DNA from: Ruminococcus albus 7 = DSM 20455
Lineage (GTDB): Bacteria > Bacillota > Clostridia > Oscillospirales > Ruminococcaceae
Assembly (NCBI RefSeq): GCF_000179635.2
Contig: NC_014833.1
Span: forward strand, 1,770,001-1,802,000
Reading direction: 5' to 3'
DNA length: 32,000 nt
The notes under the pieces are model-generated. The model was not told the origin of the DNA. It saw only the letters and a list, made by a program, of their open reading frames with translations, and did no database searches. The position numbers and the translations under genes are program-made. This document shows, piece by piece, positions 1 to 29,670 of this stretch (positions are counted from its first letter, which is position 1; every line of letters begins with the position of its first letter).

Positions 1-196
1 CAATCGGGGAGGTCTGATAGGCAAGTGCAGCTTTGCCTACGGTTTTTATGTAGTCCTCCCAGTTTGCCTGTACGCGTTGGTCATAGTCTATCATGGTCGG
101 GTCGGTCTGAGTTGCTGCCCATGTGGGTATGGAAGTAAATGCCATGCAAAGAGCAGCAATAACAGCAGTGATCCTTTTTATATTGTTTTTGTTCAC
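1..196 (-). CDS. secreted hypothetical protein, N-terminal part only (gene runs off the left edge)
   Basis: GTG at 196-194 is preceded by AGGAGG (210-205, 8-nt spacer). The translation VNKNNIKRITAVIAALCMAFTSIPTWAATQTDPTMIDYDQRVQANWEDYIKTVGKAALAYQTSPI has a basic n-region, a hydrophobic core and an AxA-like cleavage site. The frame stays open to position 1. It is absent from the ORF track because it has no stop in the window. Confidence 0.55.
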   Translation of the reverse strand, partial: MNKNNIKRITAVIAALCMAFTSIPTWAATQTDPTMIDYDQRVQANWEDYIKTVGKAALAYQTSPI

Positions 197-317
197 GATA
201 TAGGCCTCCTCGTGTATTGTTTATAGTGTATTAAAATAATCCAAATTCTAATTTTATTTTATCACAATTAATGAGTGAAGTCAATGGACTAAATGAAAAC
301 AAATATTACATTCTCGG

Positions 318-678
318 CCCTCGCGCGGGTACGCATCACGTCACGTACAAGGTGATTGAGGGAAGAATGTTTCTCGGTAACCATTGTCAGCTGTAGCGGA
401 GAGTTTGTTTCCCCTCGCGCGGGTACGCATCACGTCACGTACAAGGTGATTGAGGGAAGAATGTTTCTCGGTAACCATTGTCAGCTGTAGCGGAGAGTTT
501 GTTTCCCCTCGCGCGGGTACGCATCACGTCACGTACAAGGTGATTGAGGGAAGAATGTTTCTCGGTAACCATTGTCAGCTGTAGCGGAGAGTTTGTTTCC
601 CCTCGCGCGGGTACGCGTCACGTCACGTACAAGGTGATTGAGGGAAGCGTGTTTCACGGTAAACATTGTCAGCTGTAA
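318..678. repeat. tandem direct repeat, 94-bp unit, about 3.8 copies (three identical, the fourth diverged)
   Basis: The TCGCGC anchor recurs at 321, 415, 509 and 603, an exact 94-bp period. Copies at 318-410, 411-504 and 505-598 are identical. Copy 599-678 has 6 substitutions and then loses homology. The array is a GC-rich island in an AT-rich intergenic region. Each unit contains TGA, TAA and TAG, and 94 is not a multiple of 3, so it is non-coding. Confidence 0.97.
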
Positions 679-764: not shown

Positions 765-793
765 TTTACATTTTAAGAAATTTATGCTATAAT
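765..793 (+). promoter_or_regulatory. sigma-70 type promoter (TTTACA-17 bp-TATAAT with TGc extended -10)
   Basis: TTTACA at 765-770, TATAAT at 788-793, exact 17-bp spacer, TG at 785-786. It sits about 60 nt upstream of the ATG at 855. Confidence 0.7.
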
Positions 794-854: not shown

Positions 855-1619
855 ATGGCTGAAAATACAGGAAACAACGAGAAAAAAGAGGGAAATGTTC
901 TTGCAGGATTTGTCCTCTATAAAGATGCCAACATGGATTGGGCAAGGTTCAGAAAATCTTTGAAAGAGGATTGGGGCATAGAAGCCGAGGGCGAAGACGA
1001 GGTCAAGGATAACGCCATAGTATTCCACACCGAAGGTATGGTAGTTGCTTGTTCGCTTATGCCGAACCCTGTACCCAACAATGAGGCAGAGGAATGTGCT
1101 AAGAATAATATTCTCTGGAAAGACGGTGCCGCTGAAGTTGCAAAGCATCAGGCTCACGTCATGGTAGCGGTAATGAACAAGTTCGATGCTATGGAACAGG
1201 CTATCCTTTTTGCGAAGATAGCTTACAGCCTGCTAAAACTTGACAACGCAATTGGTATATACAAGAATCCCACAGTATACGAGAAGAAGTTCTATATTGA
1301 TTTTGCAGAAACGATAAAAAACGGTGAGCTTCCGGTACCTATACTTCTTTATACAGGTATGTATCTTGCTAAAGACGGTCTTTGTGCATTCACACAGGGA
1401 ATGACCTTCTTTGGTAAGAACGAGATGGAGATCATCGATAGTAAGCAGCAGCCTGATCAGGTGGTCGGATTTATGTTCTCCATCGAGGAATATGTTCTGA
1501 GTGAGGATGTTGAACTGAAAGACGGCGAGACCATCGGTTTTTCAGAGGAGCAGAAGCTGCCCATAAGTGTGGGTGAAGGTGTCAGCGTAAAGGGCATCAC
1601 CGCAAAGATAGGTTTCTGA
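855..1619 (+). CDS. hypothetical soluble protein, possibly DUF4261 family
   Basis: ORF-track entry 801..1619 trimmed to ATG 855 (GGAGG at 842-846, 8-nt spacer). The promoter at 765-793 puts the TSS near 800, which argues against the 801 start. 254 aa with no signal peptide or TM segment. The DUF4261 resemblance is from memory only. Confidence 0.8.
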   Translation: MAENTGNNEKKEGNVLAGFVLYKDANMDWARFRKSLKEDWGIEAEGEDEVKDNAIVFHTEGMVVACSLMPNPVPNNEAEECAKNNILWKDGAAEVAKHQAHVMVAVMNKFDAMEQAILFAKIAYSLLKLDNAIGIYKNPTVYEKKFYIDFAETIKNGELPVPILLYTGMYLAKDGLCAFTQGMTFFGKNEMEIIDSKQQPDQVVGFMFSIEEYVLSEDVELKDGETIGFSEEQKLPISVGEGVSVKGITAKIGF

Positions 1620-1620
1620 T

Positions 1621-2271
1621 ATGGATATCACAGGATTCAAGGCTGCAGTATTTGATCTTGACGGAACGCTCATACGCTCAAAAGGAGTATGGAGCGAGAT
1701 AGACAGGCAGTTTTTCAGAAAGCGGGGGCTTGAAGTCCCCGATGATTACTGCCGTGCTGTATCCACTAAAAATTTCAGGTCTGCAGCTGTGTACACCAAA
1801 GAACTTCTCGGGCTGGAAGACAGTGTTGAGAGCATAATGCAGGAATGGCATGAAATGGCAGTATACGAATATACACATATCATCGGTGAGGTTGACGGTG
1901 CGGCTGATTTTCTCAGGTATCTTTCCGAAAAGGGGATAAAGCTGGGGCTTGCCACAGCAAACTCAGCGTCGCTTTATGAGCCTGTGCTGAAAAGGCTTGG
2001 GGTCTACTCTTTGTTTGACAGCTTTGCCACTACCGAGGAAGTTGAGCACGGCAAGGGCTTTCCTGATGTGTATGAGCTTGCTTGCGAAAGGCTTGGAGAG
2101 AGCTCTGATGATACCATAGTGTTTGAAGATCTGCCAGAGGGTATACACGGTGCAAAGCTTGGCGGATTTACTGCAGCAGCTTGTCTTGATGACCTTAGCG
2201 ATGAAAGCAGGGAGATCATGCAGCAGGATGCAGACATCTGTTTTGAAAGCTACAAAGAACTTTATGAATGA
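1621..2271 (+). CDS. HAD-superfamily hydrolase (subfamily IA, beta-phosphoglucomutase/phosphatase-like)
   Basis: 216-aa ORF with HAD motif I FDLDGTL, a motif II-like GLATAN, and a C-terminal acidic motif VFEDLPEGIHGAKLGG. The ATG lies 1 nt after the upstream stop, so the genes are operonic. Confidence 0.88.
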   Translation: MDITGFKAAVFDLDGTLIRSKGVWSEIDRQFFRKRGLEVPDDYCRAVSTKNFRSAAVYTKELLGLEDSVESIMQEWHEMAVYEYTHIIGEVDGAADFLRYLSEKGIKLGLATANSASLYEPVLKRLGVYSLFDSFATTEEVEHGKGFPDVYELACERLGESSDDTIVFEDLPEGIHGAKLGGFTAAACLDDLSDESREIMQQDADICFESYKELYE

Positions 2272-2360: not shown

Positions 2361-2437
2361 GCGCCAGTAGCTCAGCTGGATAGAGTGACTGGCTACGAAC
2401 CAGTAGGTCGGGGGTTCGAGTCCCTCCTGGCGCACCA
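2361..2437 (+). tRNA. tRNA-Arg (anticodon ACG), CCA encoded
   Basis: Hand-folded cloverleaf. Acceptor GCGCCAG/CTGGCGC, D stem GCTC/GAGT, anticodon stem ACTGG/CCAGT with loop CTACGAA (anticodon ACG). T arm GGGGG-TTCGAGT-CCCTC, discriminator A, then CCA at 2435-2437. Confidence 0.95.
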
Positions 2438-2541: not shown

Positions 2542-2603
2542 TTTCACATATCCATCACAAAAACATACAATAATTCCACGAACTATGTCCGCTATTCCAC
2601 ATT
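2542..2603 (+). promoter_or_regulatory. upstream motif copy A: TTTCACA-N5-ATCACAAA-N11-ATTCCAC plus a second ATTCCACATT
   Basis: The same 38-nt architecture recurs at 3361-3398. TCACA half-sites lie 11 bp apart (2544 and 2555), as expected for direct-repeat binding by a winged-helix response regulator. Confidence 0.45.
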
Positions 2604-2689
2604 GATTCTATTATCCTTTCAGATTTGTGCTGTACTATATAGCTACGGAAACAAATTCCGGACACAAAACAGAAAGGAACGTGAACACT

Positions 2690-3301
2690 ATGAGATCATT
2701 TTCAAAATCCGCTGCCTGCATTTGTGCTTTGGTAATGGCAGCATCGACCATGACTGCTGTCAGCGTAAGTGCAGAGCAGAACAAAGGTTCAGCTGCAGCT
2801 GTTACACAGGAGAACAGCAAGTCAGAAAATACTGACGTTAAGTTCGGAAAGGTAACTGCGGTGAATGGCAGCGAAATAACTGTTGCCCTCGGAGATTTTA
2901 CCAAAACGGAAAAATCTTCGGAAACTTCGGATGTGAAGGAAAAGAAAAAGCAGTCCGATGAAACATCTTCCACAGATGAACAGCAGACCGAGAAGATCAA
3001 AACAAAAGTCAAAGGTCATAAAGGCAAAGGCGGACATCGCGACAGTTTTACTGAAGACGGCACTACCGTTACGGTGACTGTCACTGATAACATTACCGTC
3101 AGCAGAAAGGGTGCAGAGGCTTCAGTATCAGACATCAGTGAGGGCGATATAATAAAGCTTGGATACAATGAAAATGCTGAACTTGAAATCGTAAAACTGA
3201 TGAAAGGCCATAAACACAGCGGATCAGGTACGGAAGGCAGTTCAAAAACCCGTCCCGCAAAGAAAGCAGGCAAGTCTTCGGAACAAAGTACCGAAGCATA
3301 A
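2690..3301 (+). CDS. secreted low-complexity (Lys/Ser/Glu/Thr-rich) hypothetical protein
   Basis: ORF-track entry 2627..3301 trimmed to ATG 2690. This gives MRSFSKSAACICALVMAASTMTAVSVSAEQ, a signal peptide with a VSA-E cleavage-like site. Two short beta-rich segments (KFGKVTAVNGSEITVALGDF and TVTVTDNITVSRKG...DIIKLGYNENAELEIVKL) are separated by charged low-complexity sequence. Confidence 0.75.
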   Translation: MRSFSKSAACICALVMAASTMTAVSVSAEQNKGSAAAVTQENSKSENTDVKFGKVTAVNGSEITVALGDFTKTEKSSETSDVKEKKKQSDETSSTDEQQTEKIKTKVKGHKGKGGHRDSFTEDGTTVTVTVTDNITVSRKGAEASVSDISEGDIIKLGYNENAELEIVKLMKGHKHSGSGTEGSSKTRPAKKAGKSSEQSTEA

Positions 3302-11306: not shown

Positions 11307-11335
11307 TTGATAATGATACGATCGTATGCTATAAT
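11307..11335 (+). promoter_or_regulatory. sigma-70 type promoter upstream of the first ECF sigma gene
   Basis: TTGATA at 11307-11312, 17-bp spacer, TATAAT at 11330-11335, TG at 11327-11328. Confidence 0.6.
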
Positions 11336-11480
11336 AAATACTGATGAAGCATTTTGCAGATACCATTCTTATTTATTTGAGATGGTCGCTGAAAATTTTT
11401 TTATAAAAATGCAATCAAACTGTTATGACATTCGTTTTATAAGTGAAAGCTTTCAAAATTATCCGCGGGGAGGTGAAAAG

Positions 11481-11963
11481 ATGACGATGAGCATAGAAGA
11501 AGTGGTTGATAATTATGCCGACCATATCTATCGTGCTGCTTACGCATATCTTTGTGATGCGCATGAAGCCGAAGACGTAGTCAGCGATGTGCTGATGAAG
11601 TATTTCTCCATGTGCGAAACACTTGATATCGAAACAGCGGAACATCTTAAAGCGTGGCTGCTTCGTACGGCTATAAACCGATGCAAGGACATTCGCAAGT
11701 CATTCCGCTGGAAGCACACTTCCACTCTGGAAGATGTACATAAAACAGAATTCGGGTGGACTGAAGCCGAACTTGATGTGAAACGGGCGGTAGATAAGCT
11801 TCCCGAAAAATACAGAGCCATCGTTTATCTTTACTATTATGAGGAGTACAAAACAGAGGAGATAGCACGTATACTCAGCCTGCCGAAAGGAACTGTGGTC
11901 TCGCGGCTGAAAAGGGCGCGGGACAGGCTGAAAGATGTGCTTTCGGATTACAGAGAGGAGTGA
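11481..11963 (+). CDS. RNA polymerase sigma factor, ECF (sigma-70 group 4) type
   Basis: ORF-track entry 11307..11963 trimmed to ATG 11481 (GGAGGTG lies 7 nt upstream). 160 aa. Region 2 (ADHIYRAAYAYLCDAHEAEDVVSDVLMKY...WLLRTAINRCKD) and region 4 HTH (YEEYKTEEIARILSLPKGTVVSRLKRARDRL). Confidence 0.88.
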   Translation: MTMSIEEVVDNYADHIYRAAYAYLCDAHEAEDVVSDVLMKYFSMCETLDIETAEHLKAWLLRTAINRCKDIRKSFRWKHTSTLEDVHKTEFGWTEAELDVKRAVDKLPEKYRAIVYLYYYEEYKTEEIARILSLPKGTVVSRLKRARDRLKDVLSDYREE

Positions 11964-11967
11964 GCTT

Positions 11968-13152
11968 ATGAGCGCGATAAAAGATATGTACGGCAAAGCA
12001 AAGCTTTCCGATGAGAAAAAAGCCGAACTGAAAAATGAGCTCGGTCAGCGATTTCCTCGATATGCGGACAGCATGGAAGATAAAACGGAGGTCATTGGAA
12101 TGAATGATAATAAAGTACATGAAAGCAACGGACATATAAAGGTACACAGCAAGCTGAGAACAGGTGCAGTAATTGCAGCGGCAGCTGTTGTGGCTGTGAT
12201 AGGCGGAATGAAACTGGCGAGAGATCAGTACACCGAAAAAGCGTTGATCCAGCCCGCAGGTCAGGGAGAGGATAATTATACAACAGACAGAGAAGATTCT
12301 GTAAAAGAAGATTATTCACCTCAAGAGGGTTATATCGAAATAGCAGATAAGACAATTCTCAGAAATATAAAAATTATATATAACTCAGCGCTTGAAGCAT
12401 ATGCGGATCTTATCGATAGCACAGGTGATGAGTTTGTTCTTGGTGAAGAAAAGATCATAACCGCTGAAATGGTCAGACAGTCAAGCAAAAACAATATAGT
12501 TCATGAGGATGGCAAATGTTCTGCAATGGAATTTGCAGCAGCACTCAACAAGTCTTTAGCTGATTTAGATGGATTTAATGCAGAACAGTATGATTTTGCT
12601 GTTGACTTCATGTTCAATGAGAGTGGTACTAAAACAGTAAGTGTAAACTATGTATACATATTTCTTGATGATGAACACAAATACTTTAACACTTATCCGT
12701 CGTATGGATCGAATGGCGGTGTAAGGGAAAATGGTATCACCAAAAGATTAAGTTATGATAGTTCTTGCGCAAAGAAGGTGTATGAAGAATTAGAGGCAGC
12801 TATCATAAAATATAACGAAAGCGGTAAGCCCTTAAATATAGATAGTATTCAAGCAGATACTTCAAAAGAATACCTATATTTGATCTGTGATTACGAGCGT
12901 GAGGGCTTAGAAGTAAATGATAAAATGAAATTTGCGCGTGAACTTATGAAGGATGGCAGCATAACTAGACAGTTTATTGAAGACGGCAATAATTTCGATG
13001 CGGATTTCAAACGTGACGAAAACGGTAATATCATTGGAGTCGAAAGGGTATATGTTGAGATATTCGATGATGAAAGTGCTGAATATGATGAAAACGGCAA
13101 CCGAAAGTGTGAACGCTTTGATTATCCCGATGAGAATAAAACTGAAAAATGA
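11968..13152 (+). CDS. single-pass membrane protein, putative anti-sigma factor with an extracellular domain of about 300 aa
   Basis: ORF-track entry 11935..13152 trimmed to ATG 11968 (GAGGAG lies 7 nt upstream), 4 nt after the sigma stop. One TM segment (TGAVIAAAAVVAVIGGM). No recognisable zinc anti-sigma motif. The call rests on position and topology. Confidence 0.7.
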   Translation: MSAIKDMYGKAKLSDEKKAELKNELGQRFPRYADSMEDKTEVIGMNDNKVHESNGHIKVHSKLRTGAVIAAAAVVAVIGGMKLARDQYTEKALIQPAGQGEDNYTTDREDSVKEDYSPQEGYIEIADKTILRNIKIIYNSALEAYADLIDSTGDEFVLGEEKIITAEMVRQSSKNNIVHEDGKCSAMEFAAALNKSLADLDGFNAEQYDFAVDFMFNESGTKTVSVNYVYIFLDDEHKYFNTYPSYGSNGGVRENGITKRLSYDSSCAKKVYEELEAAIIKYNESGKPLNIDSIQADTSKEYLYLICDYEREGLEVNDKMKFARELMKDGSITRQFIEDGNNFDADFKRDENGNIIGVERVYVEIFDDESAEYDENGNRKCERFDYPDENKTEK

Positions 13153-13607
13153 CCGTGACCATTCCCGATGTTGCAGGCAAAAACAAAACCGAAGCTATAT
13201 CAGAGTTAGAATCGCTGGGATTCAAAATAGACGTGCATCCGATAGAATATGAAGACGTTCCTGAGGATACTGTATTAATAACTAAACCTGAAGCAGGCAA
13301 TGAAATTGAGTTTGGAAGTCAAGTGAAAATATATTTCAGTGGCACGGCTTCTAAAGAACAGCTTGTTTCAATTCCTGATGTAGTTGGCAAAGATAAAAAT
13401 GATGCTGTATCAGAGATACAATCTCAGGGATTTAATACTACTATATATTGGATGTACTCCGATACAGTTCCAGAGGGGACTGTTATATTCACCGAACCTA
13501 GCTCAGCCAGATCTGTCAGACCTAATGAACGAGTTATGTTGGTTGTCAGCAAAGGGCACTTTGATCCGGCTGAAAAGAAATCAACAAAAGATACATTAGA
13601 AAAATAA
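13149..13607 (+). CDS. protein made of two PASTA domains, without any export signal
   Basis: 152 aa with two PASTA repeats: IPDVAGKNKTEAISELESLGFKIDV...VPEDTVLITKPEAGNEIEFGSQVKIYFSG and IPDVVGKDKNDAVSEIQSQGFNTT...VPEGTVIFTEPSS...RVMLVVSKG. The ATG overlaps the upstream TGA (ATGA) at an A5 run. Confidence 0.75.
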   Translation: MTVTIPDVAGKNKTEAISELESLGFKIDVHPIEYEDVPEDTVLITKPEAGNEIEFGSQVKIYFSGTASKEQLVSIPDVVGKDKNDAVSEIQSQGFNTTIYWMYSDTVPEGTVIFTEPSSARSVRPNERVMLVVSKGHFDPAEKKSTKDTLEK

Positions 13608-13786: not shown

Positions 13787-14800
13787 TTATTCCAGCGTAA
13801 AAGTGATCTCCCAATCTCCGGAAGTATAATCCTGTGCAGTTACAAATTCACCTTGCAGAGTGCATTTGCACAGCTCATCATAAGAAACAGGTATGATCTG
13901 TTCCGTATAATTGTCCTTGTTAGTATCATCAGAATAATCAAATCCAAATTCTGTGGTTTCACCTATTTGGACACCATTGGTGTTGCAAAGCTTGATAAAG
14001 CCGTGACTGTCGGTATGCGAATTGTCTTCATATCGTGTCAGGATATGAAGCGCACCGTCAATGTATCCGATATTCATTACAGAGACATTTGGTGCGGGAG
14101 TGCAAAGCGTTTGTTCGGAAGGAATCAAAAAACGATACTCATGGGGATCGGGAAGCTCGTCATAGGAAAATCCGCCACTGATTTCATTTCGTGTCATGGT
14201 CTGTGGTTCATAAGGGATACTGCTCATATCAATAGCTTCAAGTGCCGTCTTCGTTTTAATTTTGCCCGTCATCATCTCATGAACGGAGAAAGTGACCTTA
14301 CCATTTGGCATAGCGCTGCCGTCCATCGTTTCCAAATGCACCACAAAATAGGCAGTATGGGAATCAGCATCATATTCCGAGAAGCTGCAATGACCTGTCA
14401 TATCATGGGGAACATTGATGTGATAGCTGTCATACAGATCCCAATCACCGTCAGGACAAGTACCTGTTGTATCGTGCATTGCAAGATATACGCTCGCTTC
14501 ACTTCCATTACGTTCAGCGGAGATGACCGTCATTTCAATTCCATTATCTTCACACGTTTTCTGTACCGGTTTGAATGTCTGTGCAACAGAAGGAGCAATA
14601 TGGTATAGGATATTGTACGCAGGATCGACACCAAATGCTGTCAGTGTCGGGAGCGGACAAGTTATCAATGCTGCAGCAGCTGCAACTGAAACTATCCTTT
14701 TTGTCCACTTTCGATGTGTGATCGTTCTTTTCGGTATATCAACATCAAGATAACGGTCTTCTATCATTCCGACCGCATTCATAAATGTATCAGCATTCAT
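13787..14800 (-). CDS. single-pass membrane protein, putative anti-sigma factor (second module)
   Basis: 337 aa. The ATG overlaps the sigma stop (ATGA at 14797-14800). Cytoplasmic N-terminus MNADTFMNAVGMIEDRYLD, TM segment IVSVAAAAALITCPLPTL, and a beta-rich extracellular domain of about 270 aa. Confidence 0.72.
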   Translation of the reverse strand: MNADTFMNAVGMIEDRYLDVDIPKRTITHRKWTKRIVSVAAAAALITCPLPTLTAFGVDPAYNILYHIAPSVAQTFKPVQKTCEDNGIEMTVISAERNGSEASVYLAMHDTTGTCPDGDWDLYDSYHINVPHDMTGHCSFSEYDADSHTAYFVVHLETMDGSAMPNGKVTFSVHEMMTGKIKTKTALEAIDMSSIPYEPQTMTRNEISGGFSYDELPDPHEYRFLIPSEQTLCTPAPNVSVMNIGYIDGALHILTRYEDNSHTDSHGFIKLCNTNGVQIGETTEFGFDYSDDTNKDNYTEQIIPVSYDELCKCTLQGEFVTAQDYTSGDWEITFTLE

Positions 14801-15354
14801 AGATAATTCTCCTTTTTTAGTTTGGCATAGAGTTTTTTTCGTGTCCTGAACAGCATGGATTTTACCTTGCTTTCAGAAAAACCGTGATTCTCAGCAATCT
14901 CGGAAATTGACTGCATATACCAATAACGACGGACAAATAAATTACGTTCTGTATCAGATATGTTTTCAAGAAAATGCTCAATTTCTTCCGCAAGGGCTTG
15001 CTCGGATACCTGTTGTTCAACATTCTGATCAGATCTCAGCCACTCAGCAACTTCATCATATATGACTCTGACTTCATCTGCACCGCGTTTTATAGCTTTG
15101 TCAGAACGAACACGTTTCAAGCTGATGTTTCGTGTCAGTTTGCCAAGAAATGTTTGCAGACATTCGGGTATGTGTGGTGGAATACTGTTCCATGCTGCAA
15201 GCCAGGTCTCGTTAATTGCTTCATCCGCATCTTCGGGGATATGCAGGATATGTTTTGCGATCGTCCGACAATATTTTGTGTATTTCCGTTCGGTATGTAC
15301 AACGGCATTTTCATTTCGCTGTAAATACATTTCAATGATCTGCTGATCTTCCAC
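14797..15354 (-). CDS. RNA polymerase sigma factor, sigma-70 family (ECF-like)
   Basis: 185 aa. GTG start with GAGGAG 7 nt upstream. Region 2 (EDADEAINETWLAAWNSIP...FLGKLTRNISLKR) and region 4 (RRYWYMQSISEIAENHGFSESKVKSMLFRTRKKL). Confidence 0.85.
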   Translation of the reverse strand: MEDQQIIEMYLQRNENAVVHTERKYTKYCRTIAKHILHIPEDADEAINETWLAAWNSIPPHIPECLQTFLGKLTRNISLKRVRSDKAIKRGADEVRVIYDEVAEWLRSDQNVEQQVSEQALAEEIEHFLENISDTERNLFVRRYWYMQSISEIAENHGFSESKVKSMLFRTRKKLYAKLKKENYL

Positions 15355-23615: not shown

Positions 23616-23913
23616 TATTAATATGAAATACATAATCTGTCAAAATTATTAAGATTCATTAAAAAGGAGAGTGCGTAAATATGATGTTAAAGTTCTGCTA
23701 TGCGAACGGTGATTCATATGCTGATGCGTGCTTTTCGCGATATCTATTGATAGATGCGCTCTTTGGATGATTTATCTTTCAGAGCGTTTTGTTTATTCAT
23801 AAAAAGGAGGACGATTGAATGACAGAGATCGAACATTCAAATGTAGCGGTGCGTACCGCGAACGTACGCAAAATGAGTTAGTCAAAAATTTGAAAGGACA
23901 GGTGAATTTAATT

Positions 23914-26900
23914 ATGGCACGTAATTTGTCAAAAGATCTTAAGAGAATGGTAGCAGGACTGTGTGCAGTTCTTATCGTAGGCGGAGCAGTTCCACTGCAG
24001 CCACTGGTTAATTTCGGCGGCACTATCAAAGCGGCGGCTACTGATATTGAAGCTACCTACACCAAGGACAGCCCCGAACTTGTTGATGGCGTAATACTAA
24101 AAAAAGGTGAGTCGATCGATTTAACAGGTACGAACAATCGATGCCACTTCTATACTGATACAAAAGTCGACATGTATTCTGACGGGTCTTTTACTAGTCA
24201 TACGAACTGGTGGAATGGTGTTACCAGAATATATGTCGATGATCAGGGTAATGTCAAGGCTTATGTTGGTACTGGTAGTAATCCATATACAACTACTTTC
24301 ATTCCAAATGACGGCTACACTTTCAAGTTTAGGTATGACAAAATTGAAGAAATTATCGAAGCTTATCAGGTGCCCAATTATGTCAAGGCAGAATCTATTT
24401 CTGATCTTAATAAAATGATTGAATGCCCAAATGAAAATGAAGCATATGAATGGGCATTTAGTCACTTAAATGAGGTCGGTCACGATTCAGACTTCCTGGT
24501 AATAGTAAGAAAATTAGAGGATGACTACGATGTTTATTGGTATGATCCCTCATTAGAATCTATATATCACTGCAGTAAAACTGAAACAGAAATTTCCGAA
24601 TATATGGAAGTAGGCAACACTGTCTATTATATCCCCGATGTTGTAAAAACAGCCACTTTATCACCCGGTGGTTTTGTAGAAGGTGATGACTATGCGGTTG
24701 TAGGTAATGTTACTGAAGTATCCCCCGGAGATGTTGTAACTATCTATTCCAATAAGAAGTTCAAAACCGACAAGGACTATACTACTCTTGATTTTGAAAA
24801 GAATCCTGATACAGAGGGTGATTATGAAGATTTCAAGTACAAGTGCACAATGACCGTTAACGATCAGGCAACTTTCGGTGAAAACGAAGTCATTTCCTTT
24901 ATCGAAGAATATAAGGTAACTCTGAACTTCCAGGATCTGACAGAAACAGATTATGCTGTAGATTATGACAGCAACGATGTATATGTTACCGACTATGTTG
25001 ATATATACACCAACAAGCGTTTCTACCTTAATGATACAAATAAGGATTATATCCATTATGACTGGGGAACACAGGACGGTGGTTTTATATTTAATGGAAA
25101 CACATATCTGTACAAATATCATGTAACATTCCCTAATTATCCTCTTGAAGAAAATGGCACTGCTACTTTCATAGCTGAGAAGAACGTTGATCTGGAATTC
25201 AACGATATGGTTGAGGGCATGGATTATGTAGTTGAGGGCGGACTTGATTATGCTTATGTCAAGGACGGTTCTGTTATCTACTCCAACCAGAGCATCACAA
25301 CAGATATCAGCAAGGCACAGCTTGTGGAGAGCATAAGAAAAGACGGCTTTACTTATAATGAGAAGAATTATAAGTTTAAATACGATGTTACTTATCCGGA
25401 AACACTGAATACCGGTGATACGGTTACTTTCACCCACGTTCACGAATATGGCAATCCTCATGTTGATACCGTTAACAAGCCCGATACTATCCTTGCTGAA
25501 TGCATAGGTGAGAACGGCGAGAATGTCGGCACAGTAGAGCTTGCACTGCTCCAGCCCAAGGAGGTTTACCACTACGGTGATCTGCCTGTAGTTGAAGATG
25601 TAGTTATCAAGCCCGAGCAGGTTCCTAATGGTATAACCAAGATCGAACCTTTGAGCCTTTCTATAAGAAAAGCTGACAAGGCAACAACTCAGGAGACCTT
25701 TACCGATTTCGGTGAATATGAGCTCTCAGCTGTAGTAAATGTTGGATACGACGGAAAGGATGTACCTTGTACTATCACAAAGACCGTTATGTACGCACCT
25801 CGTTCACTGACAGGCGATGAGAACAGTTCTTCAACCGATCCTGGTTACACAGGTTGTCAGTTCTTCCTGAAAACAAAAGTTACATCCGAAGAACAGCAGA
25901 CACCTAAGTATGATGAAACTCTTCTGAAAGTTGAGAACGGCGTTGTAACTATCCCCGAAAATACCTTTACATATAACGGTGAAGAGCAGAAGCCCACTAT
26001 CGTTGTAAAGAACACCATAAACGGCACAGTTACCGAACTTACTCAGAAATATATCACCAGCACAGTTGAAGCTAAGGAGGGTGCTACTCCTGATAATGAG
26101 TTCTATGAGTTCAAGATCTCCGCAGTAGAGTCTGCAGATCCTGAGACCGACCCTGAAAAATACACAGGCGAAGCTACTATTAAGTGGAGAATTGAAAAGG
26201 CTGAGAACACCCTGGAACTGACTCCTAAGGATGATATCGTTTATGACGGTGAGAAGCTGGATATAAACGACTTCAACGCTGATGACAAGGATGATATCCT
26301 TAATGATGATAATATCAAGCTTGAATTTGAAGGCAGTAAGGGTTATGAGTATATTGCACCCGATGATGCAGAAACTCCTTACCAGTTGACCGAGGCTGAT
26401 AACGGCAAGCTGCTGACACCAACTGTTGGATTTACGTATAACGTGCCAACGGGTGAGAATGTAACTTATCAAGCAATTGAATATAGTGTTGAAAATAATG
26501 AAGTTAAATCAGAAGTAATTCCTAGTAATGAAGTAATTTCGAGAATTTCGATTGAAAATATAGAGGATCATGACTTTTTGGTAATCTATGGACTTGGTGA
26601 ATCACCTCTGGATGGATTCTATATTAAAGAAAATGTAAGGGATAGAGCATCTGTAACATTTGAAGATAACGTAGTTACTTTACACATATTCAACGATGAA
26701 GTTTACGAGCTGAAGACCGGATCCTCAGGCGATGATGATTACGACATCACCAGCGCAGGCGAGCAGAAGGGTAAGGTTACTATAACTTCCGATAACTATA
26801 AGACTAAGGTCATCGACTTTAATACTGCGATCGCCAAGAAGGAAGTAACCGTAGCACCCAACGGCATCAAGGACAATGAGAAGAACACCATAACATGGGG

Positions 26901-29670
26901 CGAACTCATCAAGGACAGCGATGTTCTGTATACCCAGGACGGCGTAGTAGAAAAGGATAAGCCCAATGGTGGCGAGTATAACTTCGGTCTGATTTTCACA
27001 CCTGAGGGTTATAACTTTGAAGATGCAAAAGAAAACGATGCAGGCGAGTACAAACTGGTTCCCAGCCAAATATTCGCAGAGTATAACGAGGCTGCTAACA
27101 ACTACCTGCTGGTACTGCCCAAGAATAATAACGATGAGCAGAACAATGACGGCGATGCTGAGGAAGATGTAAAGCTTGATACCCTGACAATAGTTCCTTA
27201 TGAGCTGACAAAGGATGATATCACTATCGTAGAAACCGAGTATCAGTATGACTCCAAGACTAAGGAACCTAAGGTAACAGCAACTGCACCTTACAGCGTT
27301 AAGAATTCCGATGATACCAAGTACTATACTCTGACCCTTGGTAATGTTGAAAGCCATGACGGCAAGGATGCGTTCATCGAAGGTGTTAGATACGATAATA
27401 CTGTAAGTGAAAAGAATATATCTGTCAAGACCGACGATACAACCAGCGGTAACTTCACCGCAGGCGAAAAGGGTGTGGAGTTCAAGTGGTACATTAAGAA
27501 TGGTACACTTGACGTTACTGTCGGTAATATCATTGACAAGGTCTACAACAGCAAACCAGTTCCCAATCCTACCATTACTGTAGTAAACCAGAACGAAGAA
27601 TCTGTAAAGGGAGTTACCACTAAGTTACAGTATCAGAAGAAGGATGAGGAAACAGGCGAGTTCGGTGAAGCATTTGACGATGCACCCAAGGATGCAGGCA
27701 CATACAGAGCAGTTGTAACAGCAAACGCAAACAGCTACGATGAGGGTGTCGGATACTCCAACGAATTTACTATCAGCAAGAGAACTGTAAAGGTAACTCT
27801 GACCGGACTGCCTGAAGTAGTTGGCTATAAGGATACAGAAGTAAGCTATACACTTAACAGGTATTCAAGTCATAATACTTCTTCTGGTATAATGAACGCA
27901 GATATAACAAGCGGTGAAGTTTCTGTTAACGGTAAAGTGATCATAGAAGCAGGCAAGCAGAACGGTGATCATATCACAAATGAAGATCTGCCCGAGATCA
28001 CAGAAGCACTGGGCAATAACTACACATTTGAATATGATGTAGTACTCAATCTGGCAAATGCTAAGCTTGCAAGGATCGAAGTATCCACAGCTTACATCGA
28101 TAAGGACGAAACGATCGATCCTGAGGATTACTTCAAGGCTTACGATGAGAACGATCTTGAGATCACCGATAGGTGCAAGGTCATCAACATTGATAATATC
28201 AACCAGGTTGGTGAGTACACCATCGAGGTAAAAGACGATTCAGTTGATACTGCTCTCACTGGTACCCTGATCGTTAAGGAGAAGTATGAAGAGATCAAGG
28301 ATCTGCTGGATACTCTGTCTCCCTCTGAAGATATAGCTCTTGTAGATAAGAAGGTAATAGAAAAGGCACGCGAATCTCTGGATAATATGTCAGATGAGCA
28401 GGCTGCTAAGGTTGATCCCGAAGATATCCAGAAGCTGGAAGATCTCGAAGAAGCACTGAAGAAGTATTCAGAAGATATTGCAGCAGTAGAAGCAGTTGAA
28501 AAAACCATAGATGAACTTCCTGCAGCAGAAGAAGTTACCAAGGACGATGCTGAGGCAATAGCAGCAGCACGCGAAGCTTATGATGCACTGACAGAAGATC
28601 AGAAGTCCGCAGTTAAGGATGACTTGGTCAATAAGCTGGCAGCTGACGAAAAGGCACTGCAGGATATAGCTGACAACGAAGCAGCTGATGCAGTTGAAAA
28701 TCTGATCGATGAGATAGGCGAAGTTGCTTTCGATGAAACAAGCAAGGCTAAGATCGACGCAGCAGATGAAGCTTATAATGCACTGACCGATGATCAGAAG
28801 GCACTTGTTGAGAACAAGCAGACACTTGATGATGCTAAGACAACATACGATAATCTGATCGCTGCTGATAACAATACTAAGGCAGGCGCAGTTGATGAGC
28901 TTATCAATGATATAGGCGAAGTTGCTTTCGATGAAGCAAGCAAGGCTAAGATCGACGCAGCCGATGAAGCTTATAATGCACTGACCGACGAACAGAAAGC
29001 ACTTGTTCAGAACAAGCAGACACTTGATGATGCTAAGACAACATACGATAATCTGATCGCTGCTGATAACAATACTAAGGCAGGCGCAGTTGATGAGCTT
29101 ATCAATGGTATAGGCGAAGTTGCTTTCGATGAAGCAAGCAAGGCTAAGATCGACGCAGCAGATGAAGCTTATAATGCACTGACTGACGATCAGAAAGAAC
29201 TTGTTCAGAACAAGCAGACACTTGATGATGCTAAGACAACATACGATAATCTGAAGGCTGCAGATGATAAGAATAAGGCAGATACTGTAAAGAACGCAAT
29301 AAGTGCTCTCCCTGCAGCAGAAGATGTTACTAAGGATAACGCTGAAGCTATAGCAGCAGCACAGAAGGCTTATGACGAACTTACCGACGAACAGAAGGCT
29401 CTGATCGATCCTGAAGTAGTTAAGAAGCTTACTGATGCAGCAGCAGCTGTGGCAGCTCTTGAAGATGATGACTTTGTCAAGGGTGATGTAAGCGGCGATG
29501 GTAAGATAACTGTAACTGATGTTTCTAAGGTATCAGCTTACGTAAAGGGCAAGAGCTCACTGACAGATGAAGAGATCAAGCGCGCTGACGTTAACGGCGA
29601 CGGTATGGTCAACATTTCTGATGTATCTCTCCTGTCTGCTCACGTTAAAGGACGCAAGGCCATTAAATAA
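23914..29670 (+). CDS. giant secreted dockerin-containing repeat protein (adhesin-like cellulosomal component)
   Basis: ORF-track entry 23815..29670. I prefer ATG 23914, giving MARNLSKDLKRMVAGLCAVLIVGGAVPLQP (signal peptide); TTG 23815 is the alternative. Three degenerate repeats of about 88 aa lie at roughly 24650-25450. Ig-like modules follow, with the pattern [FY]xY[ND][GS]xxxxP ... AGxY ... FxIxK (MBG/YDG-like). Then about six helical 66-aa repeats and a C-terminal dockerin. Confidence 0.85.
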   Translation: MARNLSKDLKRMVAGLCAVLIVGGAVPLQPLVNFGGTIKAAATDIEATYTKDSPELVDGVILKKGESIDLTGTNNRCHFYTDTKVDMYSDGSFTSHTNWWNGVTRIYVDDQGNVKAYVGTGSNPYTTTFIPNDGYTFKFRYDKIEEIIEAYQVPNYVKAESISDLNKMIECPNENEAYEWAFSHLNEVGHDSDFLVIVRKLEDDYDVYWYDPSLESIYHCSKTETEISEYMEVGNTVYYIPDVVKTATLSPGGFVEGDDYAVVGNVTEVSPGDVVTIYSNKKFKTDKDYTTLDFEKNPDTEGDYEDFKYKCTMTVNDQATFGENEVISFIEEYKVTLNFQDLTETDYAVDYDSNDVYVTDYVDIYTNKRFYLNDTNKDYIHYDWGTQDGGFIFNGNTYLYKYHVTFPNYPLEENGTATFIAEKNVDLEFNDMVEGMDYVVEGGLDYAYVKDGSVIYSNQSITTDISKAQLVESIRKDGFTYNEKNYKFKYDVTYPETLNTGDTVTFTHVHEYGNPHVDTVNKPDTILAECIGENGENVGTVELALLQPKEVYHYGDLPVVEDVVIKPEQVPNGITKIEPLSLSIRKADKATTQETFTDFGEYELSAVVNVGYDGKDVPCTITKTVMYAPRSLTGDENSSSTDPGYTGCQFFLKTKVTSEEQQTPKYDETLLKVENGVVTIPENTFTYNGEEQKPTIVVKNTINGTVTELTQKYITSTVEAKEGATPDNEFYEFKISAVESADPETDPEKYTGEATIKWRIEKAENTLELTPKDDIVYDGEKLDINDFNADDKDDILNDDNIKLEFEGSKGYEYIAPDDAETPYQLTEADNGKLLTPTVGFTYNVPTGENVTYQAIEYSVENNEVKSEVIPSNEVISRISIENIEDHDFLVIYGLGESPLDGFYIKENVRDRASVTFEDNVVTLHIFNDEVYELKTGSSGDDDYDITSAGEQKGKVTITSDNYKTKVIDFNTAIAKKEVTVAPNGIKDNEKNTITWGELIKDSDVLYTQDGVVEKDKPNGGEYNFGLIFTPEGYNFEDAKENDAGEYKLVPSQIFAEYNEAANNYLLVLPKNNNDEQNNDGDAEEDVKLDTLTIVPYELTKDDITIVETEYQYDSKTKEPKVTATAPYSVKNSDDTKYYTLTLGNVESHDGKDAFIEGVRYDNTVSEKNISVKTDDTTSGNFTAGEKGVEFKWYIKNGTLDVTVGNIIDKVYNSKPVPNPTITVVNQNEESVKGVTTKLQYQKKDEETGEFGEAFDDAPKDAGTYRAVVTANANSYDEGVGYSNEFTISKRTVKVTLTGLPEVVGYKDTEVSYTLNRYSSHNTSSGIMNADITSGEVSVNGKVIIEAGKQNGDHITNEDLPEITEALGNNYTFEYDVVLNLANAKLARIEVSTAYIDKDETIDPEDYFKAYDENDLEITDRCKVINIDNINQVGEYTIEVKDDSVDTALTGTLIVKEKYEEIKDLLDTLSPSEDIALVDKKVIEKARESLDNMSDEQAAKVDPEDIQKLEDLEEALKKYSEDIAAVEAVEKTIDELPAAEEVTKDDAEAIAAAREAYDALTEDQKSAVKDDLVNKLAADEKALQDIADNEAADAVENLIDEIGEVAFDETSKAKIDAADEAYNALTDDQKALVENKQTLDDAKTTYDNLIAADNNTKAGAVDELINDIGEVAFDEASKAKIDAADEAYNALTDEQKALVQNKQTLDDAKTTYDNLIAADNNTKAGAVDELINGIGEVAFDEASKAKIDAADEAYNALTDDQKELVQNKQTLDDAKTTYDNLKAADDKNKADTVKNAISALPAAEDVTKDNAEAIAAAQKAYDELTDEQKALIDPEVVKKLTDAAAAVAALEDDDFVKGDVSGDGKITVTDVSKVSAYVKGKSSLTDEEIKRADVNGDGMVNISDVSLLSAHVKGRKAIK
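28690..29283 (+). repeat. three near-identical in-frame 198-bp (66-aa) tandem repeats inside the giant gene
   Basis: GGCGAAGTTGCTTTCGATGAA recurs at 28717, 28915 and 29113, an exact 198-bp period. The unit is AV(D/E)ELI(N/D).IGEVAFDE(A/T)SKAKIDAADEAYNALTD(D/E)QKALV.NKQTLDDAKTTYDNLIAADNNTKAG. More divergent copies flank it from about 28280 to 29460. Confidence 0.95.
29482..29667 (+). other. C-terminal type-I dockerin module
   Basis: GDVSGDGKITVTDVSKVSAYVKG ... ADVNGDGMVNISDVSLLSAHVKG. These are two canonical DxxGDGxxxxxD Ca-binding loops, each followed by a helix. Confidence 0.9.

Follow-up and report, generated by a model that had tools for sequence, protein, structure and literature searches.

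The repeat array that occupies positions 318-677 of the window (the whole stretch of 32,000 nucleotides analysed here) is probably a DNA minisatellite, or VNTR, specific to one lineage and one locus in a single rumen Ruminococcus species. Arrays of at least two to three distinguishable units exist at this locus, and their composition differs among strains; this much is firm. Copy-number differences at the same locus, which a first-pass annotation of this DNA had named as a check, were found in public assemblies, where between one and four copies were counted (such counts are prone to collapse). These numbers and the differing unit variants fit a copy-number-variable spacer best among the three readings given in that annotation, the others being a tandem structured RNA and an array of protein-binding sites. 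The array is a possible strain-typing marker for this one species and its biological interest is limited; the locus also illustrates how short-read assemblies disagree on identical tandem copies.

Tandem Repeats Finder returned the sole non-coding array of the window as a head-to-tail repeat with a period of 94, 3.8 copies, 98% matches, no indels and a score of 685, in agreement with the 94-bp tandem copies described at first. In a pattern search, the first 45 nt of the unit occurred four times in 32 kb (starts at 318, 412, 506 and 600) compared to 0 expected from window shuffles. The unit table bore out that the first three copies are identical (Table 1). The fourth copy was indeed divergent and passed into unique sequence after unit position 78, its similarity to the other units ending at position 79. 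It carried five substitutions (unit positions 18, 49, 50, 57 and 64, all within the first 78 nt) and not the six reported earlier, because base 678 had also been counted. The GC content of 0.50-0.53 along the array (~51% overall), compared to 0.26-0.34 in the flanks, agreed with the earlier picture of a GC-rich unit in AT-rich surroundings, and the longest ORF within the array was 45 aa. The units abut without spacers and the 16-nt linker is constant from unit to unit. A head-to-tail array of units of ~10-100+ bp with no spacer between them is what defines a minisatellite, and the period, copy number and match rate found here correspond to that description. A CRISPR array was considered and rejected, because there are no unique spacers, the units directly adjoin one another and the linker does not vary.

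Table 1. Features of the window around the array, and array copies in other alleles of the same locus; copy counts are from probably short-read assemblies, which can collapse repeats, and are to be read so.
Feature	Position	Strand	Array copies	Source or remark
5' end of 848-aa secreted gene, GTG start at 196, signal peptide	1..196	-		exact-protein look-up
Promoter-like site TTGACT-17-TAAAAT with TG, 10/12, for transglutaminase-like gene	256..284	-		promoter scan; conserved in L020
Tandem array, 3 full units and 78-nt terminal unit	318..677	no strand	4	Tandem Repeats Finder, pattern search, unit table
Unit 1, 94 bp, identical to units 2 and 3	318..411	no strand		unit table
Unit 2, 94 bp	412..505	no strand		unit table
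Unit 3, 94 bp	506..599	no strand		unit table
Terminal unit, 78 nt, 5 substitutions, without the 16-nt linker GCGGAGAGTTTGTTTC	600..677	no strand		unit table
Promoter-like site TTTACA-17-TATAAT with TG, 11/12, for DUF4261-HAD operon	765..793	+		promoter scan; conserved in L020
DUF4261 protein gene	855..1619	+		ORF list, Pfam
HAD hydrolase gene, next after DUF4261 gene	1621-2271	+		
tRNA-Arg	2361-2437			plus strand, right of HAD hydrolase gene
Array in L001 (GCA_000621285.1)	2558-2823		3	
Array in L003 (Logan assembly of SRR1168361)	2652-2823		2	
Arrays in L002, L005 and L014			3 each	mutually distinct copies
Array in L006			2	
Locus in L029 and L030			1 each	metagenome contigs
Array in L004			at least 3	N gap
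Array in L008			at least 3.3	contig end

The array lies between the start of the minus-strand gene and the plus-strand promoter, where it had been placed before. The 848-aa product of the minus-strand gene had no Pfam match; its R. albus homologues, 64-65% identical, are named transglutaminase domain-containing protein by their sources. The promoter scan found no sigma-70-like site within 318-677 and placed promoter-like sites only outside the array, as the first-pass annotation had judged. Measured from the edges of the array, the minus-strand site starts 33 bp to the left and the plus-strand site 87 bp to the right. The array is thus upstream of both divergent promoters, and neither would transcribe it. 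No terminator-like site was found in the array or adjoining it, and manual reading of the unit for ECF, sigma-H, sigma-54, cre, Spo0A, LexA and TnrA-type motifs gave nothing convincing.

Two features of the right-hand intergenic DNA were noted beside the array. A perfect 7-bp inverted repeat, ATACCGT-N12-ACGGTAT (691-697 and 710-716), lies between the array and the plus-strand promoter; its arms were constant in all strain alleles seen and its spacer was variable in L002. The DUF4261-HAD operon may have its operator here. Shortly 3' of the -10 element, the predicted leader of the DUF4261 gene holds a GC hairpin, GGGG-TACA-CCCC (812-823). Its counterpart at the same place in the related species L020 reads GGGG-TCTG-CCCC, the stem being kept and the loop altered.

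Alleles of the locus were obtained by exact-protein look-up of the DUF4261 and 848-aa proteins in isolates, MAGs and metagenomes, and from one match of a metagenome DNA scan. About 10 alleles with flanks 98-100% identical to the window were compared. As in a VNTR, assembled copy number and unit composition differed between strains at one locus (Table 1). Independent assemblies of other strains contained two to three copies that differed from one another by 3-9 substitutions, and among all copies 15 of the first 78 unit positions varied. Because the internal copies of other strains are mutually different, the array must be older than the uniform copies of the window. The recent expansion from an older terminal copy that the first-pass annotation suggested is therefore plausible for this strain, while the array itself predates its homogeneous copies.

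The flanks of L001 were 100% identical to the window over 4.2 kb and those of L003 99.97% identical (one mismatch in 3.1 kb), and yet the three assemblies contained three, two and, in the window, four copies. We believe that these counts probably reflect assembler handling rather than biology, because the internal copies are identical there, and the number of identical copies in this strain is accordingly uncertain. The single-copy contigs L029 and L030 could likewise be collapsed assemblies. The L030 unit combined one variant of the internal-copy type with one of the terminal-copy type, which is consistent with real unequal crossing-over as well as with assembly collapse.

Pairwise differences between strains in the terminal unit, which is positionally orthologous, amounted to ~2-3% (L004, which contains N, was removed by hand) compared to 0.7-0.9% in the flanking intergenic DNA. 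This indicates that the unit is not under tighter constraint than its flanks and speaks against strong constraint on its sequence. The 16-nt linker was seen only between units; neither the flanks nor the single-copy alleles contained it. Across the unit junction, a block of 30 nt (GCGGAGAGTTTGTTTC followed by CCCTCGCGCGGGTA; junction block GCGGAGAGTTTGTTTCCCCTCGCGCGGGTA) was invariant in all copies seen and could mark a constrained site; its invariance was marginally above chance (p ~0.04) for a block that was chosen post hoc.

Some of the substitutions among copies occurred together. A49C, A50G and T57A jointly complete CGTG-TTT-CACG (e.g. at 648-649 and 656 of the window), and G76A with A78G completes CCAT-N8-ATGG and abolishes CAGCTG (e.g. 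at 2633 and 2635 of L002). As read from the unit table, such clustered variants that complete inverted repeats look like the signature of quasi-palindrome template switching.

The same divergent gene pair was found in L020, whose transglutaminase-like protein is 71% identical. Both promoter-like sites were kept there almost base for base, and the spacer measured 296 bp compared to 298 bp in the window after removal of the array; its centre was AT-rich and held no trace of the unit. Since the gene pair and the promoters are kept in L020 without the unit, the array represents a net gain in the lineage of the present species. In species with an 88% identical DUF4261 protein, an esterase gene lies 100 bp upstream in place of the 848-aa gene, and the unit was not found at those loci; an origin of the unit as a remnant of this esterase gene was rejected for lack of similarity. 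R. albus-type homologues of the 848-aa gene stood in other contexts, where the unit was not found either.

Searches beyond the locus recovered nothing akin to the unit. An nhmmer profile of the units, run on the remainder of the window and on 112 kb of related loci, gave no match. In a metagenome collection, a 21-base gapped pattern that is invariant in every copy seen matched a single contig, which was the same locus. Two scans of viral contigs gave 0 matches to the unit, and blastn found none in plasmids and phages. An invariant 20-mer had five matches in the GTDB representative genomes, none of which resembled the unit past the matched 20-21 bases, and they were taken as chance matches; they lay in mostly high-GC genomes, four of them clearly unrelated (Myxococcales, Acidobacteriota-type and similar MAGs) and one an unclassified MAG. 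The GTDB scan says little about this genome, because the species' own locus was not recovered by it. A literature search on the assembly accession and on Ruminococcus intergenic VNTRs returned nothing specific.

A coding origin of the unit was also considered and rejected, since its translated ORFs had no homologues. The 44-aa plus-strand ORF of the array had no word-sharing candidate. The 45-aa minus-strand ORF had two matches among 1.84 billion representatives, both of them long repeat proteins, and these were judged spurious because six weak stretches sum up in such proteins. A small minus-strand protein gene across the single-copy unit was rejected because it has no homologue, has a weak ribosome-binding site and is absent from L020.

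We envisage that a GC-rich segment of ~78-94 bp, absent from the nearest species that shares the gene pair, would have been gained between the divergent promoters and amplified head to tail. Copy number and unit composition would then shift between strains through replication slippage or unequal homologous recombination. The same turnover would homogenise copies within a lineage, which would explain the three identical copies in the window, and the short quasi-palindromes in the unit may gather clustered, template-switch-like substitutions. The unit is presumably not transcribed as a functional RNA, and its sequence as such would play no specific role. If the unit has any effect, this would be one of spacing, as every copy sets the upstream regions of the two promoters 94 bp (~9 helical turns) further apart; a modest effect of this kind may exist and is most probably small or nil.

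The array shares several properties with known bacterial tandem repeats. Intergenic minisatellites, or VNTRs, are reportedly used for MLVA typing, the MIRU-VNTR loci of M. tuberculosis ascribed to Supply et al. being an example. Like MLVA VNTRs, the present array consists of units of tens to ~100 bp set head to tail in non-coding DNA, with point variants, a variant or truncated end copy and alleles that differ between strains. Unlike MIRUs, which are dispersed over tens of loci and often lie inside operons, its unit was found at only one locus in one species, between divergent promoters. Tandem repeats of 54-58-bp units in M. tuberculosis promoters (dop, lpdA, cysG) differ in copy number both among strains and inside a single strain, and short-read assemblies tend to under-count them (PMC12817950). 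The array resembles these in lying upstream of genes with a copy number that is variable in assemblies; the M. tuberculosis unit carries the promoter itself, whereas the present unit has no promoter-like site and the conserved promoters lie outside the array. BrickBuilt of Porphyromonas gingivalis is a minisatellite within a MITE, with 23-nt units, leader and tail subunits and inverted-repeat ends, present 19 times per genome (PMC4596501). It is likewise a species-specific intergenic tandem repeat near promoters, but the array described here lacks inverted ends and occupies a single locus.

The reading of the array as a set of protein-binding sites, either upstream activating or operator sites or a centromere-like assembly, is unlikely but stays a rival on account of the high GC content, the between-unit linker and the invariant junction block. 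Under it, a protein would bind a site in each unit, with CCCTCGCGCGGG (a near-palindrome) and the TCACGTCACGT region as examples, and copy number would tune occupancy and the output of one or both divergent promoters, as in a contingency or phase-variable locus. The array lies 33 bp from the minus-strand -35 element and 87 bp from the plus-strand one, upstream in both cases; this position suits such a role, as does a unit length of what would be ~9 helical turns. Each unit contained one CCCNCGCGNGGG, which had no further occurrence in the 32 kb, the block at the unit junction did not vary among copies, and the first 45 nt were borderline-enriched in inverted repeats (p = 0.06). Against this, sub-motifs of the unit had no single copy elsewhere in the window, L020 retains both promoters without the unit, and the variable positions hit most of the inverted repeats that had been listed in the first-pass annotation.

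The centromere-like variant can be set beside sopC of the F plasmid, in which 12 tandem 43-bp units each contain an inverted repeat that is bound by SopB. Tandem direct repeats that each hold inverted repeats are common to iteron or centromere arrays of this kind and to the present array. Unlike sopC, however, the array is chromosomal, its palindromes are not conserved among copies, and it has neither a partition or replication gene beside it nor similarity to plasmid or phage DNA. A gene for a cognate binding protein (regulator, Rep or ParB-type) would be expected next to such an array and was not found there; the neighbours encode the transglutaminase-like, DUF4261 and HAD hydrolase proteins, and the nearest regulator gene is 4 kb away. 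A parS-like site at 650-665 was rejected, since its 14/16 match does not exceed chance and occurs in a single variant copy.

A more specific form of the same idea, which we hold to be quite unlikely, would make the array a contingency locus in a rumen commensal. A protein site would be present in every unit (e.g. the junction block with CCCTCGCGCGGG), and slippage in unit number would, within a population, switch or grade expression of the secreted transglutaminase-like gene and of the DUF4261-HAD operon. If unit number did vary within populations and alter expression of the secreted transglutaminase-like gene, the array would matter more, and long-unit promoter-region phase variation, a recent finding in M. 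tuberculosis, would extend to a gut anaerobe.

We think it very unlikely that the array goes back to a mobile or foreign element (a MITE, a BOX or MIRU-like repeat or an integrated remnant) that inserted here and was then amplified. The GC content of the array is foreign to the spacer, the array is a net insertion relative to L020, and Porphyromonas gingivalis offers a precedent for a minisatellite within a MITE (PMC4596501). In L029 and L030, the single-copy alleles, the unit nevertheless ran from CCCTCG to CAGCTGTA, bounded by TTCTCGG and AAGAAAAATGG, with no terminal inverted repeats and no target-site duplication. No recombinase, transposase, integrase, Rep or ParB-type gene was found in the 32-kb window. 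A REP, BOX, MITE or MIRU-like repeat is by nature dispersed over many unrelated loci, and no second locus appeared in the 32-kb window, the 112 kb of related loci, the metagenome scan or any other collection scanned. The dispersed BOX/MITE-like alternative, for which the first-pass annotation had proposed a search, was thus not borne out by the sequences covered, in which the unit was seen at this one locus only.

The minisatellite reading also has to be weighed against tandem copies of a structured RNA, the H-type pseudoknot that had been put forward from the sequence. Such an RNA would be transcribed from one strand and act as an sRNA or cis-regulator, a reading that we consider highly improbable. 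Three 5-bp complementary segments are present and interleave as the pseudoknot would require, and the nested symmetry described earlier is real in that the inverted repeats stand at the positions given for them. Their number is not statistically remarkable, since dinucleotide shuffles give as many: the 94-nt unit held three 5-bp inverted repeats compared to a shuffle mean of 2.8 (p = 0.5), and for the first 45 nt alone the shuffle mean was 0.68 with a borderline p of 0.06. The minimum free energy of a single unit was no better than that of shuffles (z of +0.48 on the plus strand and +0.07 on the minus strand, with a nearest-neighbour fold that ignores pseudoknots).

Covariation was assessed on the first 78 nt of the unit, for which 15 distinct natural variants were collected from other strains. 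The proposed stems paired in 97% of cells, which reflects the 95% identity of the copies, and this identity also leaves the test little power. None of the 15 pairs was changed on both sides, and the covariation score equalled that of shuffles. Helix 2 (positions 12-16 with 27-31) was unpaired at one position in five of the 15 copies (G28T in three, C31A in two), and RNAalifold preferred a different, non-pseudoknotted fold, likewise without covariation. The palindromes GGTAACC and CAGCTG, listed in the first-pass annotation among the symmetries of the unit, did not prove to be conserved features either: CAGCTG is CAGCTA in eight of the 15 copies and GGTAACC is GGTAAAC in the last copy of the window.

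Rfam gave only the tRNA in the window at the gathering threshold and no family match to the array even at E <= 10, as the lack of any recognisable RNA family had led one to expect; the best match in 150-900 at E <= 10 scored 14.9 bits compared to a gathering score of 37.3 and lay at the right edge of the array. There is no promoter- or terminator-like site in the unit, both conserved promoters face away from the array, and no homologue of the unit was found in any other species. In tandem sRNAs and riboswitches (e.g. LhrC1-5 of Listeria), every unit comes with its own promoter and terminator or with a conserved aptamer fold. The array is similar to LhrC1-5 in its intergenic position and its repeated units of ~100 nt; unlike LhrC1-5 or tandem riboswitches, its unit has neither promoter nor terminator nor conserved fold. 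The array is most probably not a new class of structured RNA.

We give almost no credence to an assembly artefact, in which the assembler would have made up or miscounted copies of a truly single-copy locus: the differing counts behind near-identical flanks (window, L001 and L003) and the single-copy metagenome contigs could be taken that way, but independent assemblies of other strains contain two to three copies with 3-9 mutual substitutions, the linker-plus-junction sequence is seen only between copies and could not be invented by any assembler, and the usual short-read error is collapse, not expansion (PMC12817950). The repeat is therefore real, and the doubt concerns no more than how many identical copies this strain has.

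Outside this locus, the window consists of ordinary chromosomal DNA from a cellulosome-bearing Ruminococcus; among its genes are those for a two-component system, for ECF-type sigma factors and transporters, and for a dockerin protein of 1951 aa. Straight after the terminator hairpin of tRNA-Arg (~2478), an additional non-coding segment of ~310-340 bp was present in L002 (4637-4944), L014 and L005 and missing from the window and L001, an indel polymorphism beside a tRNA gene. Another tandem repeat, of 198 bp in three copies with 93% match (28690-29281), lies inside the gene of the dockerin-bearing protein (23815-29670) and is an in-frame coding repeat of 66 aa. Two genes encode ECF-type sigma factors (plus strand, 11307-11963; minus strand, 14797-15354). 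Each is followed by an ORF of 336-405 aa without Pfam match, and these ORFs may encode anti-sigma factors. A PASTA-domain ORF was located at 13149-13607.
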